The notes beneath the pieces were generated by a model. The model saw nothing but the letters and a program-made list of their open reading frames with translations. It ran no database searches and was not told where the DNA came from. Source: Theionarchaea archaeon (GTDB taxonomy: Archaea; Methanobacteriota_B; Thermococci; Methanofastidiosales; SZ-28-30). Taken from it: 64,000 nt of DNA. Made by a program: the position numbers and the translations under genes. The stretch's first letter is position 1. Each line of letters opens with the position of its first letter. Location: NCBI GenBank assembly GCA_018992685.1, contig JACVGT010000007.1:42378-106377 (forward strand). The letters are read 5' to 3'. Of the stretch, positions 7,449 through 17,903 are shown piece by piece.

Positions 7449-8517
7449 TGGCAATCCCTCCTTTCCTGATTTTCTTGAAGATTCTGAACATTTCAGGAGC
7501 TGCCACAAACAGTATCACGATACCCTGGATCACCACCACCAGATCTGTGGGGACATTGGTCATCTGTTTCATGACCATCCCTCCGTTCCGCAGAGCACCA
7601 AACAGCAAAGCACCCAGTACTACTCCCACAGGATGGTTTCTCCCCAGAACAGCAACAGCGATCCCGTCAAATCCGTACCCCGGGGAGAATCCGAAAATAA
7701 ACCGTTTGTGCAGTCCCAGTACCTCGCCTGATCCACCCAGTCCTGCCAGCATTCCTGATATGAACATCGATATGATAATGCTTTTCTGGACACTTATCCC
7801 CCCGTATTCTGCAGCTGTGGGGTTGAGTCCTACTGCTCTGATTTCGTATCCCAGGGTAGTCCTATACAGAATATAGTACGTGACACCGACGCAAATGAGA
7901 GCCACGATTATGGCTGCTGATAACTGGGTGGAGGGTACCAACCGTGGAAGCTGGGCTGATGGTGTAACAACATCAGTCTGAGCAATCCATCCTTCAGCCT
8001 TCAAAGGATAGTTGGCCAGATAGTTGCACAGGAGCACACCGATGTAATTCATCATAATGGTGGTAATCACTTCATGGGCACCCACCCTGGCTTTCAACAC
8101 ACTGGGCACCAGAGACCATGCACCACCTGCAAGGGCCCCGGCTCCCAGGGCCAAAGGAATGTGAAAGAACCAGGGAAGCCAGGCAAAGTTGATCCCTACC
8201 ACGGCAGCAGTAATGGCCCCAACGTACAGTTGTCCCTCACCACCAATGTTGAATAACCCACATCGAAAGGCGAAGGCCACGGTCAGCCCTGTAAAGATGA
8301 GGGGTGTTGCCCTTGTGAGGGTCTGGGCAAAATCATACGTACTGCCGAATGCACCTTCGTACAGTGCCTTGTATGCCTCAAGAGGCGATGAGCCTGCAAG
8401 ATATACAATCACTGCTCCCACCAAAAGGGCAGCAATAACAGCAATGATTGAGATAAAAATGTCCATCAGACTTTCTTTTTGAATAACCTGAGTTATTTTT
8501 ATTAATCGTGGATTCAT
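7438..8517 (-). CDS. Nucleoside/simple-sugar ABC transporter permease (NupB/YufP-like)
   Basis: GLFNIGGEGQ, HEVITTIMMNY, GYGFDGIAVA motifs. Confidence 0.9.
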   Translation of the reverse strand: MNPRLIKITQVIQKESLMDIFISIIAVIAALLVGAVIVYLAGSSPLEAYKALYEGAFGSTYDFAQTLTRATPLIFTGLTVAFAFRCGLFNIGGEGQLYVGAITAAVVGINFAWLPWFFHIPLALGAGALAGGAWSLVPSVLKARVGAHEVITTIMMNYIGVLLCNYLANYPLKAEGWIAQTDVVTPSAQLPRLVPSTQLSAAIIVALICVGVTYYILYRTTLGYEIRAVGLNPTAAEYGGISVQKSIIISMFISGMLAGLGGSGEVLGLHKRFIFGFSPGYGFDGIAVAVLGRNHPVGVVLGALLFGALRNGGMVMKQMTNVPTDLVVVIQGIVILFVAAPEMFRIFKKIRKGGIANAF

Positions 8518-10043
8518 GCGTGTCCACCTGCCATCAATAATCCCAGTTCTTCTTCAGTGGTCTTCTGAGGATCTCGCTCTCCCACAATTTTCCCTTCGTA
8601 GATGACAGCGATCCTGTCAGAGAGACAGCGAACCTCATCTAAATCTGCAGAAATGAGAAGTATGGCCTTGTCCTTTTTCCTCATGCTGAGAAGGGTTTCA
8701 TGGATGAACTCGATTGCGCCCACGTCGAGACCTCTGGTAGGCTGTGAAGCGATAATAATCTCGGGCTCTCTTCCCAGTTCTCTGGCCACAATCACTTTCT
8801 GCTGGTTTCCACCTGACAGATATTTGACCTCACTGTGTACCCCAGTTCCTCTAATGTCAAAGGTCTCCACCAGCTCGGACGCATATGAATCCACCTTATC
8901 ATATTCCATTCTGAACCCGCGGGAAAAAGGAGCCTTAAAGTGGGATCCCAGTATCAGATTCTCGGATAGAGAGAAATCCTGGATGAGCCCTCTCTTCTGG
9001 CGATCTTCAGGGATGTGGGATACTCCTGCGTTGATGAAGTCCCTCGGGGAGGAATGTGTTAGATCTTCCCCGTTTACAAGAATCTTCCCCCCGCTTGGGC
9101 TTCGCAGTCCCGTTGCCGTTTCTGCCAGTTCCAACTGGCCATTGCCTTCAACTCCCGCAATGCCAAGAATCTCACCTTTCCGCAGTTCCAATGTTATCCC
9201 CTGTAGGGCTTTCACTCCTCTCTCATTGTATGCTTCCAGGTTCTGCATCTGCATCACAGCCCCCTTTGGGGGGTGAGGAGGTTTTTCCACTACCAGGCAG
9301 ACTTCTCTGCCCACCATCATTCTTGCCAGACTGGCAACATCTGTTTCCCCGGTGTGAACTGTTCCCACCAGTTGTCCTTTTCTCAGCACGGTGATGCGGT
9401 CACAGGTCGCCATGGGTTCCTTCAGTTTGTGGGTGATGAAAATGATAGTCTTTCCTTCTTCTTTTAACGATTTCATAACTTTGAACAGTTCTTCCCCTTC
9501 TTGTGGGGTCAAGACTGCTGTTGGTTCATCCAGAATGAGAATTTCAGCTCCCCGGTACAATGCTTTCAGAATCTCTACTCGCTGTTCAATGCCTACTGAT
9601 ATATCCTGGATCTTGGCTCTGGGGTCTACAGCAAGACCATACCGTTTTGAGATTTCTTCAACATCTCGTGCTGCCTTTTCTCTGTCCATGAGGAAATGAG
9701 TCTCCGGCTCAACACCCAGGACAACGTTCTCAGCCACAGTGAAGGGAGGCACTAACATGAAGTGCTGGTGGATCATGCCAATACCCAGTGAGATCGCATC
9801 ATTGGGATTTGTTATCGCAGTGGGCTTACCATTAACAGAAATTTCACCAGAATCAGGCTGGTATAGCCCATACAAGACGTTCATTAACGTGGTCTTTCCC
9901 GCACCGTTTTCTCCAAGAAGAGCATGAATTTCTCCTTTTCTAACTGAAAAAGTAATATCGTCATTCGCCAGAACACCAGGGAAGCGCTTGGTTATGTGTT
10001 GCATCTCCACAGCATTGATGGGTTCTGCATTCATTGCCATCAT
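8514..10043 (-). CDS. Tandem-domain ABC ATPase (NupA/YufO-like)
   Basis: GENGAGKT, ILILDEPT, LSGGNQQK, QPTRGLDVGA; start among ATG 10043/10040/10034. Confidence 0.93.
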   Translation of the reverse strand: MMAMNAEPINAVEMQHITKRFPGVLANDDITFSVRKGEIHALLGENGAGKTTLMNVLYGLYQPDSGEISVNGKPTAITNPNDAISLGIGMIHQHFMLVPPFTVAENVVLGVEPETHFLMDREKAARDVEEISKRYGLAVDPRAKIQDISVGIEQRVEILKALYRGAEILILDEPTAVLTPQEGEELFKVMKSLKEEGKTIIFITHKLKEPMATCDRITVLRKGQLVGTVHTGETDVASLARMMVGREVCLVVEKPPHPPKGAVMQMQNLEAYNERGVKALQGITLELRKGEILGIAGVEGNGQLELAETATGLRSPSGGKILVNGEDLTHSSPRDFINAGVSHIPEDRQKRGLIQDFSLSENLILGSHFKAPFSRGFRMEYDKVDSYASELVETFDIRGTGVHSEVKYLSGGNQQKVIVARELGREPEIIIASQPTRGLDVGAIEFIHETLLSMRKKDKAILLISADLDEVRCLSDRIAVIYEGKIVGERDPQKTTEEELGLLMAGGHA

Positions 10044-10157
10044 AAGCGTATTTCCCTTAAAAAGGCTACCGGTTGCATCTCTGGTGGCAGTATTTGATGG
10101 GCGAATTCTCACGATAACAGCTTAGGCAGTTCCTGCAAAATCAGACACCTCGCCCCT

Positions 10158-12002
10158 CTACTTCCTCATGGCTGTCTTTCTTTCATGATTTTCGGTTCTA
10201 GCCTCTGCCCCTGGCACTCTTTTGTCTGCTCTCAGCACTGAGATGATGTTCTCGAGAGACTGGTCATAGTACAATACGCCCCTTTCTCTGAGAATCTCCA
10301 GTATGTGCAAAAGCTCTTTCTCCTCCAGATGGGAAAAGTGTTGCTGTACCTGGGTGAATGACGTTATGCTGTCACAGAAAACTAGAAGGTCGGTCTCGTC
10401 TCTGCTAAAGGTACAGGAAAGAGACCTTGATCCTTTTTCCTTAAAGGCAGAACAATCGGGATATTCTGTCCACTGATAATCGCTTCCAGCCCGGGAATAA
10501 AACTGCAGAAGTCTTTGAAAGGTGTTCCACAAAAGGTAGTGGCGAATTCTCCCTGCAAAGAATCCAAAGAATTCAAATCGTTCCCCCTCTGGCAGCTGCA
10601 AGACAGATGCGATTTCTGCCCACATGGGGTCTTTGTTGTAGGCATCCCTTTCATGTTCTGACATCTCATTGTAATATGGTGATCCCTTGTACAGTGTGAA
10701 GTACTTGGGGACAATGGAATACTTCCTCAGGAAGAATCTCAGAAATCTCAAGTTCACACAACTCTCCAGGACGTCTTCCTCAGTTTCAGGTGGCGTCTCT
10801 GCTACAAAATTCCCTTTGATCTCGAGGTTGTGTTGATCCCCGAGCTTGAGAGCCTGTATATTGTGGGCAAAAGAGTGTCTCTTTTCCATTTTCTTCAAGA
10901 GAGCATCAGTCATTGCTTCAAATCCGATCTGCACGATTTCAAAACAAACCTTTTTCATGGCACGTGCTGTATCGGGGTTGATGAAGATTGGAGATGCTTC
11001 TGCAAAAAGGCGGTAGGGACGTCCTCTTCTTTCAGAACTTTCCACAATCAGGGCAAGCAGATGGTGGAATCGCTTCTTGTTACCGGGGAGTTCAGTATCT
11101 ACAAATACGAATGTGTCACCACCGTGTCTCTTGGACTGGAATTCCAGTTCTTCGACAATGTTCTCAGGAGATCGAGCCCGATATGAGAATTCCTCATTCA
11201 GAACGCAAAATTTGCACCTGTTCCAGGGGCAGGAGCGCGACCCCCAAATGGGGATGATGACCCGCATGTCTTCATGAATGTGGGTTTTCAGTGCCGCAAA
11301 ATAGTCTGTGTGGTCTGCAAATGGGTATGAATCCAGATCACAGCTTTCAGAATGCTTGTTTGTTGAGATGATGGCGGCACCATCCCGGTACACCAGATGA
11401 GGGATCTCGGTGAACGTTCCCTCTCGTATCCCCTGAATCAGATGAACCAAAGGGTATTCTCCCTCCCCCCATACAGCGTAGTCAGCCAGCTCAAATACCT
11501 TCATAAAGGCGTGAGCCTGTTCATCATTGCGAATCCCTCCAATGACGATCTGTATTTCGGGGTTTAATTCTTTCAGTCGCCTCATTACATAAGAGCTCAG
11601 AAGCCACTGGTAGGTCTTTAGAGTAAATCCCGCCAGAGGTTCTTTGTAGAGGCCATTTTGGTATATGTAGTCATCGATTTTTGTTCGAAGTGTGTCTACA
11701 AAGGGAGGTATTTTCCCCTGATCAAAAAAGGGTGAAAAATACTGGTCGAGAACAGTCGTCTCGTGATGGGCACCTGAGAGATGTCTCACTGTATACAGAA
11801 CGGGAGTATTAAGAGAGGACAAGGATGAAAACACAGGATAGTCCCCAATGTGATCCTGGAGTTCTGACAGCTCCTCAGCAAGTATTAGATTCCAGTAGAT
11901 ATTTGTCACAGAGATTCCCCTTGATTGCAGGAACCCTTTCAGATATCCCAAAGCAGGATTGGGAATATCGTAACTGTAGGGGGGCAAACAGTTTAGTATC
12001 AT
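10158..12002 (-). CDS. Cobalamin-binding-type radical SAM enzyme (RiPP-maturation/C-methyltransferase-like)
   Basis: PNPALGYLK N-terminus, IVIGG and VWGEGE B12-domain motifs, SRSCPWNRCKFC, QIGFEA; ATGA overlap with upstream gene. Confidence 0.85.
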   Translation of the reverse strand: MILNCLPPYSYDIPNPALGYLKGFLQSRGISVTNIYWNLILAEELSELQDHIGDYPVFSSLSSLNTPVLYTVRHLSGAHHETTVLDQYFSPFFDQGKIPPFVDTLRTKIDDYIYQNGLYKEPLAGFTLKTYQWLLSSYVMRRLKELNPEIQIVIGGIRNDEQAHAFMKVFELADYAVWGEGEYPLVHLIQGIREGTFTEIPHLVYRDGAAIISTNKHSESCDLDSYPFADHTDYFAALKTHIHEDMRVIIPIWGSRSCPWNRCKFCVLNEEFSYRARSPENIVEELEFQSKRHGGDTFVFVDTELPGNKKRFHHLLALIVESSERRGRPYRLFAEASPIFINPDTARAMKKVCFEIVQIGFEAMTDALLKKMEKRHSFAHNIQALKLGDQHNLEIKGNFVAETPPETEEDVLESCVNLRFLRFFLRKYSIVPKYFTLYKGSPYYNEMSEHERDAYNKDPMWAEIASVLQLPEGERFEFFGFFAGRIRHYLLWNTFQRLLQFYSRAGSDYQWTEYPDCSAFKEKGSRSLSCTFSRDETDLLVFCDSITSFTQVQQHFSHLEEKELLHILEILRERGVLYYDQSLENIISVLRADKRVPGAEARTENHERKTAMRK

Positions 12003-13327
12003 TCATGGGCCTCCTTTTGCTTACTGACATATGTTTTCACCTGTGGCAGCCCGAAAACCTGCCTGGTAAAATCCACGGTGAAACAGCCAGGAGCATCCAG
12101 TGTTCCTTTCTCTCTCAATGCAATGGCAGGGCATCCCCCCATACACCGGGGAAGCATGACGCAGGCTTTACACTCAGTAATGGCCAGGGGGTTGCGGGCC
12201 ATCCACGAGTAGTATGCAGGTGTTTTGTCCAGAGAACCACGAGAGTTCAGAGACCCCACAGCATGGCGGGTGTCTCCTACCAAAGACATGCACTTGTAGA
12301 CACGGCCATCCACATTGATGATGTGAAACCAATCAGTAATACCAGCACACAAGGAAAAGTACACACCAATTCCAAAAGGGAGTGTGGTGAATCCTTTGTG
12401 AGCAGCCATTTCCATGACTTCACTGAAGAGATCTGAAGTCCCCGGATATCCGTAAGAACTGTAGTAGTGGGTACAGTAATCCATGCGGGGAGTAACCGTC
12501 CCAAAGTAGGTATGGGCCTTCTCAAGGCCAGCTTCTCTCAACATTTCAAGAAAGGTAATGATATTGTCTTCCCATACGTTAATTCGCATAATCAGATTCA
12601 TGCCATGATCTTCAACACATTGGGCACCCTCTACCACTGATTGCAGGCTGCTTGTCTCATCAGGGAAAACCCTCCTGGTGTGGTGGTAGTACTCAGGTGC
12701 ATCAAAAGTGATATGAATATCTGCTACCGTGAACTGTGAGAGGTTGTCGAGTCCTTCAGGAGTAAGGAGAGTTCCATTGGTGAAGAGCTTGATGAGGAGA
12801 GAAATACCTGCTTCACTACATGCCTCTTGCAGGGTTTCAGTAAGAGAGGTTATGCACTCTTGATTCAAGAGTGGTTCTCCTCCGTAAAGACTCACAAAGA
12901 GCGTGTCAATGCCTCGTACGATCTGATTCTCAGCAAAGGTTACCCCTCTTTCTGCTACCTTCTTGCTCATATGCCCAGTGCAGGCAGAAGAATTCCTGTA
13001 GCAGTACCTACAGTTCAAGTTGCATTCGTGCGTGACAATGAAGTTCAAGAATGCAACTCTCCCAAGAGGAGAGCCCCGATATCCTGTAGAGGGGAGGCAC
13101 CACTTCTTCTGTTCCAAGGAAGCCTGTATCAAGTTCATCTCTTGACCGGTGTCCTCTATGAGAAGTCCCTGCTTTGATAGTGCTTCAATAATCTCAGGGG
13201 AGCCTTTTCCGGTCATGAGGACGTCATACATTTCAGAATCAATCACTGTGAGAGACCCGTTCAATGTATTGTATACAAGGAAATCCTCTCTAAATGGGAT
13301 AATAAAGCAGTACTGTGATCTCTGCAT
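11999..13327 (-). CDS. Radical SAM/SPASM peptide maturase 2
   Basis: N-terminal RRE-like segment (FLVYNTLNGSL), CNLNCRYC, YGGEPLL, SPASM cysteines C..YKC..CKACVMLPRCMGGC..C. Confidence 0.9.
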   Translation of the reverse strand: MQRSQYCFIIPFREDFLVYNTLNGSLTVIDSEMYDVLMTGKGSPEIIEALSKQGLLIEDTGQEMNLIQASLEQKKWCLPSTGYRGSPLGRVAFLNFIVTHECNLNCRYCYRNSSACTGHMSKKVAERGVTFAENQIVRGIDTLFVSLYGGEPLLNQECITSLTETLQEACSEAGISLLIKLFTNGTLLTPEGLDNLSQFTVADIHITFDAPEYYHHTRRVFPDETSSLQSVVEGAQCVEDHGMNLIMRINVWEDNIITFLEMLREAGLEKAHTYFGTVTPRMDYCTHYYSSYGYPGTSDLFSEVMEMAAHKGFTTLPFGIGVYFSLCAGITDWFHIINVDGRVYKCMSLVGDTRHAVGSLNSRGSLDKTPAYYSWMARNPLAITECKACVMLPRCMGGCPAIALREKGTLDAPGCFTVDFTRQVFGLPQVKTYVSKQKEAHE

Positions 13328-13332
13328 AATAA

Positions 13333-14676
13333 TCAAACCCAGATGATCTTTCCCGCCTTGAACCGGTCAGGAAGCTTCTTTTCGAGGTACCAACGAAGCT
13401 GATGTTTCATTTCCTGGTACGGTGCATAGCATCCAACTGCGTGGAATGTCCCATGCTTTTCATATGCAACAGCAGCACATCCTCCCCCACATGAGGGTAG
13501 CATCTGGCACTCACGACATTCCGGTATCTGCAGGGGGTCTCTGCTCATCCAGTCGTAGTAGGTCCATGTATACTCTGGTATGGTACCGTCTTCTGAAATA
13601 TGACCAATGGAATGGTTTTTCTGCCCCACGAAGGTGAGACACTTGTAAAGATCTGCATGAGGATCTATGATGAAGGTTCCTTCCCCTAGGAATCCACAAA
13701 AGACGTGAGCTGGCTTGTGGGTGCGAATGACAGCAGCCGCTTGACCTTTTTGATCCACAATATCTCTGAATTCAGCAAGTACCTCACGGGCTTCTTCCTC
13801 TTTAATGCACTTGGAGTAGTCCTTACATGCTTGAGTTGATGCCCCCACTGTACCACAGCGCACAGGGACATTCTTGAATCCCCTCTCCTGAAGCTCGTCC
13901 AGCAGCTCACCGATGAACGGTCTGCTTTCAGAATCCACGTTCACCCTAAAGCTCACTCCGACGTTTTGGTCCTGCAGAATGTGAGCTGATTGCATCATGT
14001 CATCAAAGGTACCTCCTCCACTCTTGTAGAATCGTTTGGTGTCGTGGATGCGTTTGGGACCATCCAGCGTGATCTGTACGTAGTCTGTGTGGTAGCGCTT
14101 CAACGTTTCAGCTATTTCAGGTGTGACCAGAGTACCATTTGTCACCATCATTGTCACGTATGAGATGCCGTGGTCTTCTGCCCAGGAAAAGCAGGAATCC
14201 ATAATGTACTCAGAATCGTCGAATCTGAGCAGTGGTTCACCACCATACAGCGACACAGAAAATTCCCGCGCGTGAGTGTCTTCCACGTATTTCTTTATGA
14301 ATTTCACAGTTCTTTCCCTGGTGTCAGCATTCATTGTCCCGCGGAATAGCTCTCCTTTTCCTTCATAGCAGTATGGACATGCTAGATTGCAGGCATATGT
14401 CGTTATGAGCATGAAATGGGGAAAATCCACCGTGTATTTCCTGTATTCATATCCTACCTTGAATTTTCGAGATTCATCAAAATCATCTTCTATGATTACC
14501 TTGAGCGCTGCAAGAGATTTGAACAAGTCAGAATCCAGAATGTCAATATTCCCGGCTTTCAAAGCTTCCTTCAGCTCTTCATCTATTCCTATTACTGCAC
14601 CACTCATCATGTTGGCCAACAGGTATTCTCCAGGAGTCTCTGTGGGGATAACTATGTTGAAGTTTGACACTTTCAT
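13333..14676 (-). CDS. Radical SAM/SPASM peptide maturase 1
   Basis: N-terminal RRE-like segment (MKVSNFNIV..YLLANMMSG), CNLACPYC, YGGEPLL, ITLDG, SPASM C..YKC..CRECQMLPSCGGGC..C; SD GAGGTGA before ATG 14676. Confidence 0.92.
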   Translation of the reverse strand: MKVSNFNIVIPTETPGEYLLANMMSGAVIGIDEELKEALKAGNIDILDSDLFKSLAALKVIIEDDFDESRKFKVGYEYRKYTVDFPHFMLITTYACNLACPYCYEGKGELFRGTMNADTRERTVKFIKKYVEDTHAREFSVSLYGGEPLLRFDDSEYIMDSCFSWAEDHGISYVTMMVTNGTLVTPEIAETLKRYHTDYVQITLDGPKRIHDTKRFYKSGGGTFDDMMQSAHILQDQNVGVSFRVNVDSESRPFIGELLDELQERGFKNVPVRCGTVGASTQACKDYSKCIKEEEAREVLAEFRDIVDQKGQAAAVIRTHKPAHVFCGFLGEGTFIIDPHADLYKCLTFVGQKNHSIGHISEDGTIPEYTWTYYDWMSRDPLQIPECRECQMLPSCGGGCAAVAYEKHGTFHAVGCYAPYQEMKHQLRWYLEKKLPDRFKAGKIIWV

Positions 14677-14689
14677 GAGGTTCACCTCA

Positions 14690-14720
14690 GGAAAAAAGAA
14701 AGGCAGGTTGAACTGCCTTT
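14690..14720 (-). terminator. Hairpin plus U-tract between precursor gene and maturases
   Basis: Minus strand AAAGGCAG-TTCAAC-CTGCCTTT followed by CTTTTTT. Confidence 0.7.
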
Positions 14721-14730
14721 TGTTATAGAC

Positions 14731-14838
14731 TTACACATAGGGGTGGCAAATTCTGCAGCACCAGGAACCAGTTCCTTCCGTGATGCACAGAGGCTCCATG
14801 ATTTGCTCTTCTGCTTCGATGAGGATAGTCATGTTCAT
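14731..14838 (-). CDS. Putative RiPP precursor peptide, 35 aa (MNMTILIEAEEQIMEPLCITEGTGSWCCRICHPYV)
   Basis: Translated by hand; acidic leader plus Cys-rich core; directly upstream of two rSAM/SPASM genes; own TATA box and downstream hairpin. Confidence 0.85.
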   Translation of the reverse strand: MNMTILIEAEEQIMEPLCITEGTGSWCCRICHPYV

Positions 14839-14857
14839 AGATTCCACTTCCTATTGC

Positions 14858-14872
14858 TATATAAAGTTTCTC
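14858..14872 (-). promoter_or_regulatory. BRE-TATA promoter of the precursor gene
   Basis: Minus strand GAGAAACTTTATATA, 20-26 nt from ATG 14838/14832. Confidence 0.65.
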
Positions 14873-15183
14873 TTTATCTTTATATACTTTTCTATTCATA
14901 TGAATTCTACTAATTTCGTCACTCTTATAGTAATCAAATAAGAGCAAATGCAGAAGCCAGTAGTCTTTAAAGACAATATCTCTTGATATTTTGGACTACT
15001 TTCGTCCATGTGAGGTTAAATGCAGAGATTCTCAACCGAAATGCCCCCTTTTCTCACTTTTGTAAAAAGTGATAATGTTCGGTAGAAGAGCTCTCCCTCA
15101 CAGATTTTGCAGAATCTGGTAATTGCACCTGCGATCATGAGCTGGCCCGAGAACAAAAAAGTAAAAAGTAAAAAGAAGAAGTA

Positions 15184-16224
15184 TTAATCCCAGGTGTATT
15201 CACCGGCCTCGTCAATACCAGTGGGAACCTTGATTTCGCCAGATGCGATCTGCTCCCTGTAGTCTTCAATGATGTCTCGTATGTCATTAGGCACGTGCTC
15301 GCAAGCACCAACACCATTCTCTTTTGCGCCAAAGCTCTGTATGCCGCCTGCAAAAGTCCCGTCGATTACCTGCCGTATGGTCTCGTATACAGCTACATCC
15401 ACACGCTTTATCATACTGCATAAGAAGGTCGTTACCGGTACTCCCTCAATGGTGTCGCACTGATCCGCATCTACGCCAATGACCAATCCACCACGTTCAA
15501 AAGCCGCCTGGATAGCTCCCAAGCCAGATCTTCCGGCAGCAGCGAACACGATGTCTGCCTCTCCGTCATACTGAGCAAGGGCAAGCTCCTTTCCTTTTGC
15601 AGGGTCTACCCAGTCGCCCACATACTTCCAGGTGACCTCAACATCTGGATTGACGTACTCGGCTCCAAACTTGTAGCCAGCCAGGAATTTTCGAATCAAG
15701 GGTATGTCCATTCCACCTACAAATCCAATCATATCAGTTTCAGTTTTCAGACCAGCAGCTGCTCCTACCAGGAAACTACCTTCGTTTTCCCTGAATACAA
15801 GAGAAGCCACATTAGGTTTGTCTACCACCATGTCCACGATCGCAAACTTCTGGTCGGGGTATTCATCTGCAACAACAGTGATGGCATCTGCCTGATCAAA
15901 TCCTATACCTATTATCAGTGCATATTCCCCGGACTTGGCGTACTGCCTGTGGAATCCTTCGTACTCAGCGATGGCTGTAGGTTCAACATAGTCAAATTCA
16001 ATGCCGAAATCATCTCTAGCCTTCTTGATACCTACGTAACAACTATCATTGAAGCTCTTGTCTCCTAGTCCACCAGTGGCAAAGACAACAGCAATTTTCA
16101 ATTCGGGGGGTGGGGGTGTAGAAGTTGGTGTCGGAGTTGTGGTTTCTTCCTCCTGTCCGATGCATCCCAATGTAAGGGAGCACAAAACTACCAGGGTGAA
16201 CAGCATCTTAATACTTTTGTTCAT
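15184..16224 (-). CDS. BMP-family nucleoside-binding lipoprotein of the ABC transporter
   Basis: Signal peptide with LGCIG lipobox-like motif, T/P linker, GGLGDKSFN, IGFVGG, IGVDADQ, SMIKRVD; SD GGAGGG before ATG 16224. Confidence 0.92.
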   Translation of the reverse strand: MNKSIKMLFTLVVLCSLTLGCIGQEEETTTPTPTSTPPPPELKIAVVFATGGLGDKSFNDSCYVGIKKARDDFGIEFDYVEPTAIAEYEGFHRQYAKSGEYALIIGIGFDQADAITVVADEYPDQKFAIVDMVVDKPNVASLVFRENEGSFLVGAAAGLKTETDMIGFVGGMDIPLIRKFLAGYKFGAEYVNPDVEVTWKYVGDWVDPAKGKELALAQYDGEADIVFAAAGRSGLGAIQAAFERGGLVIGVDADQCDTIEGVPVTTFLCSMIKRVDVAVYETIRQVIDGTFAGGIQSFGAKENGVGACEHVPNDIRDIIEDYREQIASGEIKVPTGIDEAGEYTWD

Positions 16225-16585
16225 ATGATTCCCTCCACGCTCACAGAGCTTGAGTAGATTTAAATACGTTTCGATGAAGCACCGAGGGTTCACTTTGATG
16301 TTAGAAGGAGCGTATGCGAGTCGTTGCTTTTCCGAAATGATGGTCCATTTGCAGGCCAATGAAGTCCTCCTCAAGAGCAACTGGGATTCGCTTTTTCTTT
16401 CTTACCCTCTTCCAGCTTTTCCTTCTTGTTTACAGGGTTCCGGTACAGTCCTTGTGTGAGAATCCCCTTTCTCATTCTTGAAGAAGTTCCTTCATTCTTG
16501 AGACCCCTCGCCCAGCCTCAAGGAAGCGTTGCTCTTCAGAACCAAAAAAGCTTTAGGGTCAAGGACTGAAAGGGAGGTGAAAGAT

Positions 16586-16717: not shown

Positions 16718-17009
16718 AGTTGAAATAATTAGAACTCTTTGCTGAAGTCCCATCGGCATTCAAAATGTTCTCGTTCTCACTACCTGTTCTGGTGGGTAGG
16801 ACGCCCCGGCAGCCCTGTCCCAAAGCTTCTGCTCTCACGTACATTTTGATCTCCTGGTTCTTTCAACTTCCTTCCTCTGGAGACTGAGATGGAGGTTCAG
16901 TAGCGTGGATTCCTGCAGCCTGCATCTCAGTCCATGTGTACAATCCTGTCTGAAAAACGGGATACACCTACGGAAGATTTATATAGGGTTTATATTAATT
17001 TTCTGTTGC

Positions 17010-17903
17010 ATGGAAGCGCACCAGTTGGACATTGTCTATGCATACGTTCAGTATTGCAGCGACACGAAGGAAGTGAGGTACTCAAAATTCCATAAATGGT
17101 ATAAGCCTTATAACCGTAAACAATCTACCTTCAGACTTTTGAATAGGGCAGTTGAGGAAAAGATCATATTTCCACCACGCATTTTCTGCATACAGAAAGT
17201 TAAGGTCAACCTGGTAGAACACAAGGAAGTTCCCCTCGTTGATCAATTCGAGAAGATTAGCAGCCAAGAAGACACGTTCTATGCAGTCCTCTTGCTGGGG
17301 GCTCATTCACTTCTGTATTTTTCGGCAAGTGATACCGGGACCAACTTGACATATTCGAAATGCATCTTTCCGAGCTATCCCCCAAAGAAGGAGATACAGC
17401 ATATTGATCCGTGCCTTCATGAACCCAGAAAGCTACCTTGTATGGCCCCACCTGACTGGTCTTCTTTTGACTGGGAAGTGTTTCAGAAAAGGAGGGATCC
17501 CACTGAATCAAGTATCAAGATTGGAGGGGTGCTTGGAGTTTCCCACAGAAGAGTCCTGAATAGCTATAAAAGAATTCTAGGAGACTGTTCCGTGTGGATT
17601 CCTTTCTTTCCAAAGGGCTACGGGAATTACACACCCTACTTTGTTTCTTTTGAAACGGATTATGAGACTGGGGTTGTTGAGGAACTGAAAAAGATCGACA
17701 GATCCAGCTACGTTTACAGAATTGATGACACAATGCTTCTGAATCTGTTCTTTGAAAGGCGTCTTGAGATTGACAGCATGTTGCAGTTAGAAAAAAAGGG
17801 GATAATACACGATCTCCGTGTATCCTCCCCAATGTATAGTTTTGAACGATTTCAATCTCAACAAGGCATTCCAGAACCAGGGCCATCTCCAGACAAAGTG
17901 TAA
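17010..17903 (+). CDS. Lrp/AsnC-like winged-helix protein, probable regulator
   Basis: DWEVF..DPTESSIKIGGVLGVSHRRV HTH-like segment followed by a beta-rich RAM-like region; TATA AAGATTTATATAG about 25 nt before ATG 17010. Confidence 0.65.
   Translation: MEAHQLDIVYAYVQYCSDTKEVRYSKFHKWYKPYNRKQSTFRLLNRAVEEKIIFPPRIFCIQKVKVNLVEHKEVPLVDQFEKISSQEDTFYAVLLLGAHSLLYFSASDTGTNLTYSKCIFPSYPPKKEIQHIDPCLHEPRKLPCMAPPDWSSFDWEVFQKRRDPTESSIKIGGVLGVSHRRVLNSYKRILGDCSVWIPFFPKGYGNYTPYFVSFETDYETGVVEELKKIDRSSYVYRIDDTMLLNLFFERRLEIDSMLQLEKKGIIHDLRVSSPMYSFERFQSQQGIPEPGPSPDKV

Follow-up and report, generated by a model that had tools for sequence, protein, structure and literature searches.

Several systems are known in which a Cys-containing peptide is modified by a radical S-adenosylmethionine (SAM) enzyme carrying a SPASM domain. 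In the SCIFF-type (six-Cys-in-45) system of Clostridium thermocellum ('thermocellin'), the enzyme CteB is encoded beside its short Cys-containing precursor CteA. PapB, an enzyme of the freyrasin-type ranthipeptides, links Cys to the side-chain carbons of Asp or Glu in short Cys-x-x-x-Asp motifs. As reported in 2026 (PMC13692751), CrpC of Methanococcus voltae is a radical SAM enzyme of the SPASM type that carries three [4Fe-4S] clusters as well as a predicted recognition element (RRE) for peptides that are made on the ribosome and modified after translation (RiPPs), and that installs ranthionine (thioether) crosslinks on CrpA, a Cys-rich substrate of the same cluster. The locus considered here belongs to a 64,000-nt stretch of the Theionarchaea archaeon assembly GCA_018992685.1 (contig JACVGT010000007.1), a metagenome-assembled genome of a marine-sediment archaeon; this stretch is referred to below as the window. 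It comprises a 35-codon open reading frame (ORF) on the minus strand, located 45 nt upstream of genes of the same strand for two radical SAM/SPASM enzymes (maturases 1 and 2) and a B12-binding-type radical SAM enzyme. Because a conserved precursor adjoins three radical SAM tailoring enzymes, we define a new modified-peptide family from an archaeal lineage that has been little studied; the kind of system is known, whereas the family, its signature and the set of three enzymes are new. The coding features are as follows.

14731..14838, minus strand: precursor gene, ATG at 14838-14836, TAA at 14733-14731, 35 residues, MNMTILIEAEEQIMEPLCITEGTGSWCCRICHPYV
14788-14838, minus strand: precursor leader, codons 1-17, MNMTILIEAEEQIMEPL
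14734-14787, minus strand: precursor core, codons 18-35
14723-14947, minus strand, other frame: overlapping 74-residue ORF with a TTG start, judged spurious
13333..14676, minus strand: maturase 1, radical SAM/SPASM, 447 residues from the ATG, Pfam Radical_SAM at 3.4e-19
11999..13327, minus strand: maturase 2, radical SAM/SPASM, 442 residues from the ATG (a TTG start at 13336 is also possible)
10158..12002, minus strand: B12-binding-type radical SAM enzyme, 614 residues, putative peptide C-methyltransferase

The two maturases are paralogues with 28% identity over their full length. Both exhibit the CX3CX2C radical SAM motif (C96/C100/C103 in maturase 1 and C102/C106/C109 in maturase 2). As criterion for a SPASM domain we used the seven Cys of the two auxiliary clusters, including CX2CX5CX3C, and the full set is present in maturase 1 (C327, C346, C387, C390, C396, C400, and C416) as well as in maturase 2 (C327, C346, C386, C389, C395, C399, and C415), the latter also matching the SPASM model TIGR04085 at 8.5e-12. 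All these radical SAM and SPASM Cys are invariant in 18 orthologues of maturase 1 and in 12 of maturase 2. Among the matches listed, 11 orthologues of maturase 2 show 47-82% identity. For maturase 1, the listing comprises 120 rows, 20 of them with an identity of 56-92% and the remaining 100 at or below 38%, which indicates, at the level of sequence identity, that the orthologues of maturase 1 form a discrete group.

The same thioether-type NCBIfam families rank first for both maturases, namely CefB (NF038107), TIGR04463, Clo7bot, geopeptide, and PapB. CefB, of the 'Cys-every-fifth' type, is the top curated family and aligns end-to-end, with 383.1 bits for maturase 1 and 218.6 bits for maturase 2. 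However, the family cutoff of 600 bits is far above either score, and the core Cys of the window peptide, at positions 18, 27, 28, and 31 (spacing 9, 1, and 3), with 18, 27, and 28 conserved, are not placed at every fifth residue as in CefA. As a search of the literature found no paper on the 'Cys-every-fifth' family, the chemistry of CefB gives no guidance.

The best solved relative of maturase 1 is CteB (5wgg/5why), with a profile E-value of 2.9e-31 and a Foldseek E-value of 1.9e-16 (rank 1-3, template-modelling score of 0.53-0.58), SuiB being a weaker structural match. The resemblance concerns the radical SAM core, the full SPASM domain and the N-terminal domain, putatively peptide-binding in maturase 1, as well as the presence of a short Cys-containing precursor beside the enzyme. 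In contrast, only about 19% of residues are identical between CteB and maturase 1, the model for SCIFF maturases (TIGR03974) yields 99.3 bits where its cutoff is 425, no SCIFF model matches the peptide, the window organism is an archaeon, and its cassette contains two maturases and a B12 enzyme. With regard to PapB, the corresponding model (NF047865) covers the whole catalytic region with 161 bits for maturase 1 and 112 bits for maturase 2, both below the cutoff of 340. The window family exhibits an invariant Glu three residues past the invariant Cys18, and a Cys18-Glu21 link may be conjectured by analogy, but the core of the window peptide has a single acidic residue and no repeated CxxxD. 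The likeness to CrpC and CrpA, which is one of description, lies in the combination of an archaeal SPASM enzyme with a Cys-rich substrate in one cluster; according to that report, CrpA is a cysteine-rich protein, not a 35-residue peptide, and the CrpC cluster has a single enzyme.

The third enzyme had been overlooked in the original prediction, an earlier reading of this DNA which had correctly placed two SPASM enzymes beside the peptide. Its best NCBIfam family is TIGR03975 ('RiPP maturation radical SAM C-methyltransferase', B12-dependent, class B), with residues 6-577 aligned, and a putative B12-binding domain and a radical SAM domain are arranged as in that family. The window enzyme differs in scoring below the family cutoff (163.4 bits against 281.85), in a B12-binding domain below the Pfam threshold (25.1 against 32.1, Radical_SAM being above its own cutoff at 54.7), and in its Cys motif, CPWNRCKFC, which corresponds to CX4CX2C at positions 258/263/266, whereas the usual radical SAM cluster motif is CX3CX2C. 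The only solved relative, 9ccb, is matched in the radical SAM core alone (E 1.8e-6). The enzyme is kept in a same-genus genome (G001; contig L021, 6033-7850), in which maturase 1 is 92% identical, and its membership of the cassette was read in G001 and in the window's own genome (G000).

Conservation of the peptide and its linkage to the maturases

The original prediction had described an unannotated 35-residue ORF, hidden beneath a 74-residue ORF of another frame, with an 18-residue core containing four Cys plus Trp, His, and Tyr. The translation agrees exactly with the sequence it quoted, the TTG-start ORF does overlap, and the residues in question are read directly in the tail as Cys18, Cys27, Cys28, Cys31, Trp26, His32, and Tyr34. 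The leader comprises four Glu and no basic residue, the translation reads without a signal sequence, and an alternative in-frame GTG start at 14847 would add three residues to the precursor. The length of the ORF is no evidence for a gene: when the 498-nt intergenic stretch was shuffled 2000 times, 65% of the shuffles contained an ATG ORF of at least 35 residues, whereas an ORF with at least four Cys in its last 18 residues was present in 0.6% of a set of 5000 shuffles. The exact peptide does not occur among about 15 billion predicted proteins, which fits a gene that was never called in this genome. It matches no Pfam model and no NCBIfam family at E≤0.01, and no second copy was found in the window's own genome, tblastn included.

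The comparison with G001 is more informative. In the 35-residue frame, four synonymous changes and one conservative change (R29K) are observed, the stop codon changes from TAA to TGA, and the location is kept. In the overlapping 74-residue frame, five changes are non-synonymous and one is synonymous; this ORF was judged spurious from its substitution pattern, no separate homologue search having been made for its product. The spacer farther upstream is only about half identical, and its other small ORFs (14896-15009 and approximately 15016-15138, minus strand) are not kept as proteins in G001, where this region is about 50% identical and contains frame changes. Preservation of the frame in a maturase-bearing relative, which had been put forward as a test of the prediction, is thus observed in G001, with four of five codon changes synonymous. 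Among contigs of four further sediment runs, that of X6 is identical and those of X4, X10, and X14 carry the G001-type substitutions; none shows an insertion or deletion within the ORF, whereas deletions of 1 nt are seen immediately beyond it, at 14722 and 14689. These substitution patterns indicate that purifying selection acts on the 35-residue frame.

More distant members of the family were found in protein collections. A search of 1.84 billion representatives returned six proteins at E≤0.001, two of which are peptides of 30-40 residues (P0006, 2.3e-5; P0007, 2.2e-4). A profile search of 5.8 billion proteins then placed five peptides at E-values of 2e-17 to 6e-15 among 60 candidates, and this search, together with cluster members, extends the family by P0009-P0014. 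The family therefore comprises ten distinct sequences: those of the window and of G001, and eight peptides of other metagenomes (P0006, P0007, and P0009-P0014). Thirteen positions are invariant in all ten (M1, M3, L6, A9, E15, P16, C18, E21, G22, G24, W26, C27, and C28), which corresponds to the motif EPxCxxEGxGxWCC, with E10, E11, and L17 nearly invariant. The peptides from other contigs keep all 13 of these residues at 47-56% identity. The EPLC junction and the Cys spacing had been proposed as conservation checks: the junction is conserved (E15, P16, and C18 invariant, L17 nearly so), whereas the spacing is conserved for C18, C27, and C28 but not for C31, which is present in three of the ten sequences. 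The tails following the CC pair are variable, reading RICHPYV or KICHPYV in three members, VYWW, IYWW, or IYWY in six, and YV in one, with a Tyr one to six residues past the pair in every member (by-eye reading of the alignment). Cys31 and His32 occur together only in the window, G001, and P0014, which form the window's close clade.

Four long repeat proteins matching the peptide (P0003, P0004, P0005, and P0008) were discounted as repeat-driven and non-homologous. P0004, a secreted-looking protein of 499 residues, contains about 14 repeats of PLCLFHGQGCWK between KR/acidic spacers and has the appearance of a fungal-type RiPP precursor with multiple cores and Kex2 processing. The repeats are probably what drives its match to the window peptide (E 1.7e-6). 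When the profile was run across the 133 genomes of the class, 44 genomes gave a match at E≤1, of which G000 and G001 stand at about 1e-21; the other 42, at E≥0.0037, were treated as noise.

With regard to linkage, the precursor lies directly beside the maturases in the DNA of G000 and G001. Elsewhere, peptide and maturase clusters were paired by the equal size and source of their longest contig, which gives the following pairs.

17680 nt, jgi: P0006 with maturase 1 P0018 (63% identity) and maturase 2 P0138 (53%)
12878 nt, ena: P0012 with P0019
5153 nt, jgi: P0009 with P0020
3868 nt, ena: P0013 with P0021
73878 nt: P0007 with maturase 2 P0141
66544 nt, NCBI 'Theionarchaea archaeon': P0026 with P0145

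These pairs suggest that the peptide family co-occurs with the maturases on five contigs beyond G000 and G001, both maturases being represented among them. Scans of genome and metagenome contigs with maturase 1 returned the G001 contig as the sole close relative, the rest being at most 37% identical and none of them encoding the peptide. Conservation and co-occurrence in other contigs both agree with the earlier claim of a precursor gene adjoining two SPASM enzymes. With conservation as its main support, 14731-14838 is, on sequence grounds, a genuine gene, and we consider it very probable that the ORF encodes the real precursor of the neighbouring enzymes.

Modelled leader docking and proposed product

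The AlphaFold models of both maturases exhibit an N-terminal domain of three strands and three helices, a topology which we take to be that of an RRE, and Pfam PqqD gave no match in the maturases at E≤0.01. The mean per-residue confidence (pLDDT) is 67.8 for maturase 1, with a weak N-terminus, and 75.5 for maturase 2, with values of 80-92 in the N-terminal domain. The model of maturase 1 in complex with the whole peptide scored 0.74, and the best of three controls 0.04. Of 80 solved complexes, 58 attained this mark, as did 2 of 110 mismatched pairs; these counts are approximate here because the calibration excludes custom alignments and riding ligands, both of which were used. At least 52% of the contacts are common to the runs, and the partner pLDDT is at least 49. 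In the confident interface, peptide residues 1-17 face positions 19-59 (with the tightest contacts at 26-32), 321-328, and 431-447 of maturase 1, in which residues 28-32 form the third strand of the N-terminal domain. Modelling of the leader, one of the checks suggested earlier, was run here on maturase 1 with the whole peptide and places the leader on the N-terminal domain. The proposed division into a leader (residues 1-17) and a core starting at Cys18 also agrees with the invariant E15-P16 followed by C18 and with the confident contacts of residues 1-17 only. The modelled docking presumably resembles that of the CteB-peptide structure. Maturase 2 probably binds the leader likewise, as suggested by the shared N-terminal fold.

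The product is most likely a thioether-crosslinked, ranthipeptide-like, C-methylated peptide. In the scheme that we propose, the precursor would probably be transcribed from its own TATA-type promoter, and a conserved hairpin and T-run after its stop codon would probably raise the level of the peptide message above that of the enzyme message. Within the leader (residues 1-17), residues 3-8 are predicted to pair, as a beta-strand, with strand three of the N-terminal RRE-like domain in maturase 1. The core would start at the invariant Cys18, and the two SPASM enzymes would most likely turn C18, C27, and C28 into intramolecular thioether bridges, whose acceptors could be side-chain or backbone carbons, with Glu21, Trp26, and the tail Tyr as candidates. 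The bridges could be of the ranthipeptide or of the sactipeptide type, attachment to the alpha or to the beta/gamma carbon being both possible. The B12-type radical SAM enzyme would then add at least one C-methyl group. The presence of a Cys-rich small ORF beside the maturases in 5 of 10 inspected radical SAM/SPASM regions of the window's genome is consistent with this scheme. By analogy with the described systems, we lean slightly towards Cys-derived thioethers; the whole scheme, comprising precursor, leader docking, thioethers, methylation, and regulation, appears reasonably probable.

Several observations weigh against this scheme. Neither maturase reaches the curated cutoff of any NCBIfam family and the peptide is without a model, so function can be transferred at the superfamily level only. 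Within the class, the peptide is held by 2 of 133 genomes. Beyond G000 and G001, the linkage is deduced from contig size and source, and no maturase 1 row of size 73878 is present among the matches listed. In addition to its approximate calibration, the complex model leaves core residues 18-35 without confident placement and the fold of the partner uncertain, and its score may be due in part to a resemblance to leader/RRE complexes already solved, for example that of CteB with its peptide. No protease or exporter gene was found in the cassette. The hairpin shows no covariation in G001, because the copy there is simply identical. A search for expression data found no RNA run among the listed sequencing runs that contain the stretch, a result which speaks neither for nor against expression.

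Among the alternatives, the one that fares best is that at least one SPASM enzyme makes a non-thioether C-C, C-N, or C-O crosslink to Trp26 or to the tail Tyr, in a cyclophane- or streptide-like manner, the two enzymes dividing thioether and aromatic work between them, as had been imagined in the original prediction. Trp26 is invariant, a Tyr is found in all ten tails, and two distinct maturases are kept across the family (56-92% identity for maturase 1 and 47-82% for maturase 2), whose low identity to each other leaves room for differing specificities. However, the shared ranking of thioether-type families described above argues against a division of this kind, as does the weaker structural match of SuiB compared with CteB. 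The cyclophane-type models score low on both enzymes; on maturase 1, YhhB, FxsB, and GrrM/OscB reach 87.9 against 445, 67.3 against 370, and 65.8 against 310, and cover only about residues 90-277. Furthermore, tandem maturase pairs elsewhere in the window's genome accompany cores of almost pure Cys/Gly. We regard an aromatic crosslink as rather improbable, albeit worth keeping in mind.

A broader reading would join several of these ideas. The CxxEGxGxWCC peptides would constitute an archaeal RiPP class that is new and the first to come from Theionarchaea; in it, the two SPASM paralogues would each install a different bridge on a core of 14-18 residues. At least one of these bridges would lead to Trp26 or the tail Tyr, by a chemistry undescribed for this enzyme clade, and the B12-type CX4CX2C enzyme would methylate the product. 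Given the insertion into a Bmp-type importer operon described below, the peptide might share its regulation with nutrient uptake and serve as a signal, not as an antibiotic. Taken as a whole, this reading is speculative and its truth doubtful.

It is very improbable that the ORF encodes a small metal- or haem-binding peptide, unmodified or minimally modified, which would act through its CCxxCH (CxxCH) tail, with the enzymes being unrelated or acting as chaperones. The CxxCH pattern is kept in the window, G001, and P0014, with four Cys and one His in 15 residues, but Cys31 and His32 are absent from the seven members with YV, VYWW, IYWW, or IYWY endings, which keep all other core positions. As CxxCH is limited to three of ten members, all from one close clade, metal or haem binding is not the function of the family, and the earlier suggestion of a metal-binding tail does not stand. 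In addition, no haem-lyase or cytochrome-maturation gene was found in the cassette, and the peptide, which lacks a signal sequence, co-occurs with both maturases and docks its leader on maturase 1 in the model. Finally, that a chance ORF lies in an AT-rich spacer whose DNA is conserved as the regulatory region of the maturase operon is hardly credible: ORFs of this length are common in shuffles, another frame is open in both genomes, conservation at the DNA level extends to the promoter-like region upstream and the hairpin downstream, and no RNA run containing the stretch was found, but this reading is contradicted by the codon-aware substitutions (4/5 synonymous in the 35-residue frame against 1/6 in the other) and by distant peptides with the same 13 invariant residues and profile E-values of 1e-15 to 1e-17, which are unlike regulatory DNA.

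Regulatory elements and genomic setting

The thioether scheme includes regulatory steps, for which the following elements of the intergenic region are candidates.

14844..14851, minus strand: Shine-Dalgarno-like GGAAGTGG, 5 nt before the ATG
14879..14886, minus strand: TATA-box-like TATATAAA, upstream of the ATG by about 41-48 nt
14858-14865, minus strand: second TATA-like TTTATATA
14689..14720, minus strand: 8-bp hairpin (14699-14720) with the T-run that follows it (14689-14698), in the interval from the precursor stop to maturase 1

The Shine-Dalgarno-like sequence, a putative ribosome-binding site, is identical in G001, and in a more divergent contig the corresponding position reads GGAGGTG (loose end at 14839, reverse complement). 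Maturase 1 is preceded by GGTGA at 14682-14686. The first TATA-like box stays TATTTAAA in G001, whereas the second is less conserved and degraded there. By comparison with known archaeal promoters, the TATA-like box could be the promoter of the precursor. A sigma-70 promoter scan, whose model is not applicable to archaea, found 9 promoters against 8.7 expected in shuffles. The hairpin has a free energy of -10.6 kcal/mol (z -2.1; 6 of 200 shuffles as good) and is 100% identical in G001 while the flanking bases differ. It may act as an attenuator or a terminator. The only Rfam match, at 19 bits against a threshold of 229, is noise.

The cassette (10113-15183) is located between a Bmp-family substrate-binding gene (15184-16380) and an ATP-binding cassette (ABC) transporter ATPase gene (8514-10112), all on the minus strand. 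In G003, which belongs to another genus of the same family (contig L071, 1-2370), the Bmp-type gene and the ABC ATPase gene are only 44 nt apart, whereas in G000 and G001 the RiPP cassette of about 5 kb separates them; the cassette thus represents an insertion into an importer operon. Its G+C content of 46-47% equals that of the genome (46.7%), so that composition gives no hint of recent transfer. A 332-residue ORF (16905-17903, plus strand) without a Pfam or NCBIfam match at E≤0.01 is oriented divergently from the Bmp gene. The stretch was found in 16 DNA sequencing runs of 6 studies, two of which are possibly its source; they are labelled as marine sediment, sediment, or coded or generic metagenome.

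Other precursor candidates and meaning of the family

Unannotated-looking Cys-rich ORFs were also observed beside other radical SAM/SPASM genes of the window's genome, at G000:C2:35882-36109 (minus), G000:C18:10930-11088 (minus; L008 2965-3123), G000:C10:13962-14156 (plus), and G000:C1:310154-310231 and 310538-310636 (minus). They include a 75-residue peptide with six CALEVQPTF repeats and two short peptides with terminal QCMCC cores. In G001 (G001:C71; L012 2868-3346, plus), two small ORFs ending in CPPYPCGCINI lie downstream of the closest paralogue of maturase 1 (37% identity) and are possibly precursors encoded after their maturase. Maturase relatives with 29-30% identity are also present in Thermotogota contigs, at L023 1882-2771 (plus; equal to L031, from a Thermotoga sp. 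metagenome-assembled genome) and at L033 772-1269. Tandem Cys-rich precursor candidates are located upstream of these genes, four in L023 and two in L033, and the leaders of three of the four L023 candidates end in E-[IM]-E-P-x-C-C, which resembles the EPLC junction of the window family. Of the precursor candidates of distant maturases, none of the 13 that were scanned reaches a curated NCBIfam peptide cutoff.

To our knowledge, archaeal RiPPs have been predicted in many genomes while few of their products are known. A literature search for RiPPs of Theionarchaea found no paper; supplementary tables were outside its scope, and those listing biosynthetic gene clusters in PMC12144867, for example, might contain the cluster. 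The window's genome gives 38 radical SAM/SPASM matches, often in tandem pairs or triplets. On account of these matches and of the several other unannotated Cys-rich precursors, we consider Theionarchaea to be a target for RiPP mining. In the window's genome, the substrate gene was overlooked by gene callers. The family described here constitutes a compact and testable archaeal system, comprising a 35-residue substrate with a signature of 13 positions, two SPASM enzymes with natural variants (47-92% identity), a B12 enzyme, and a predicted contact between leader and RRE.

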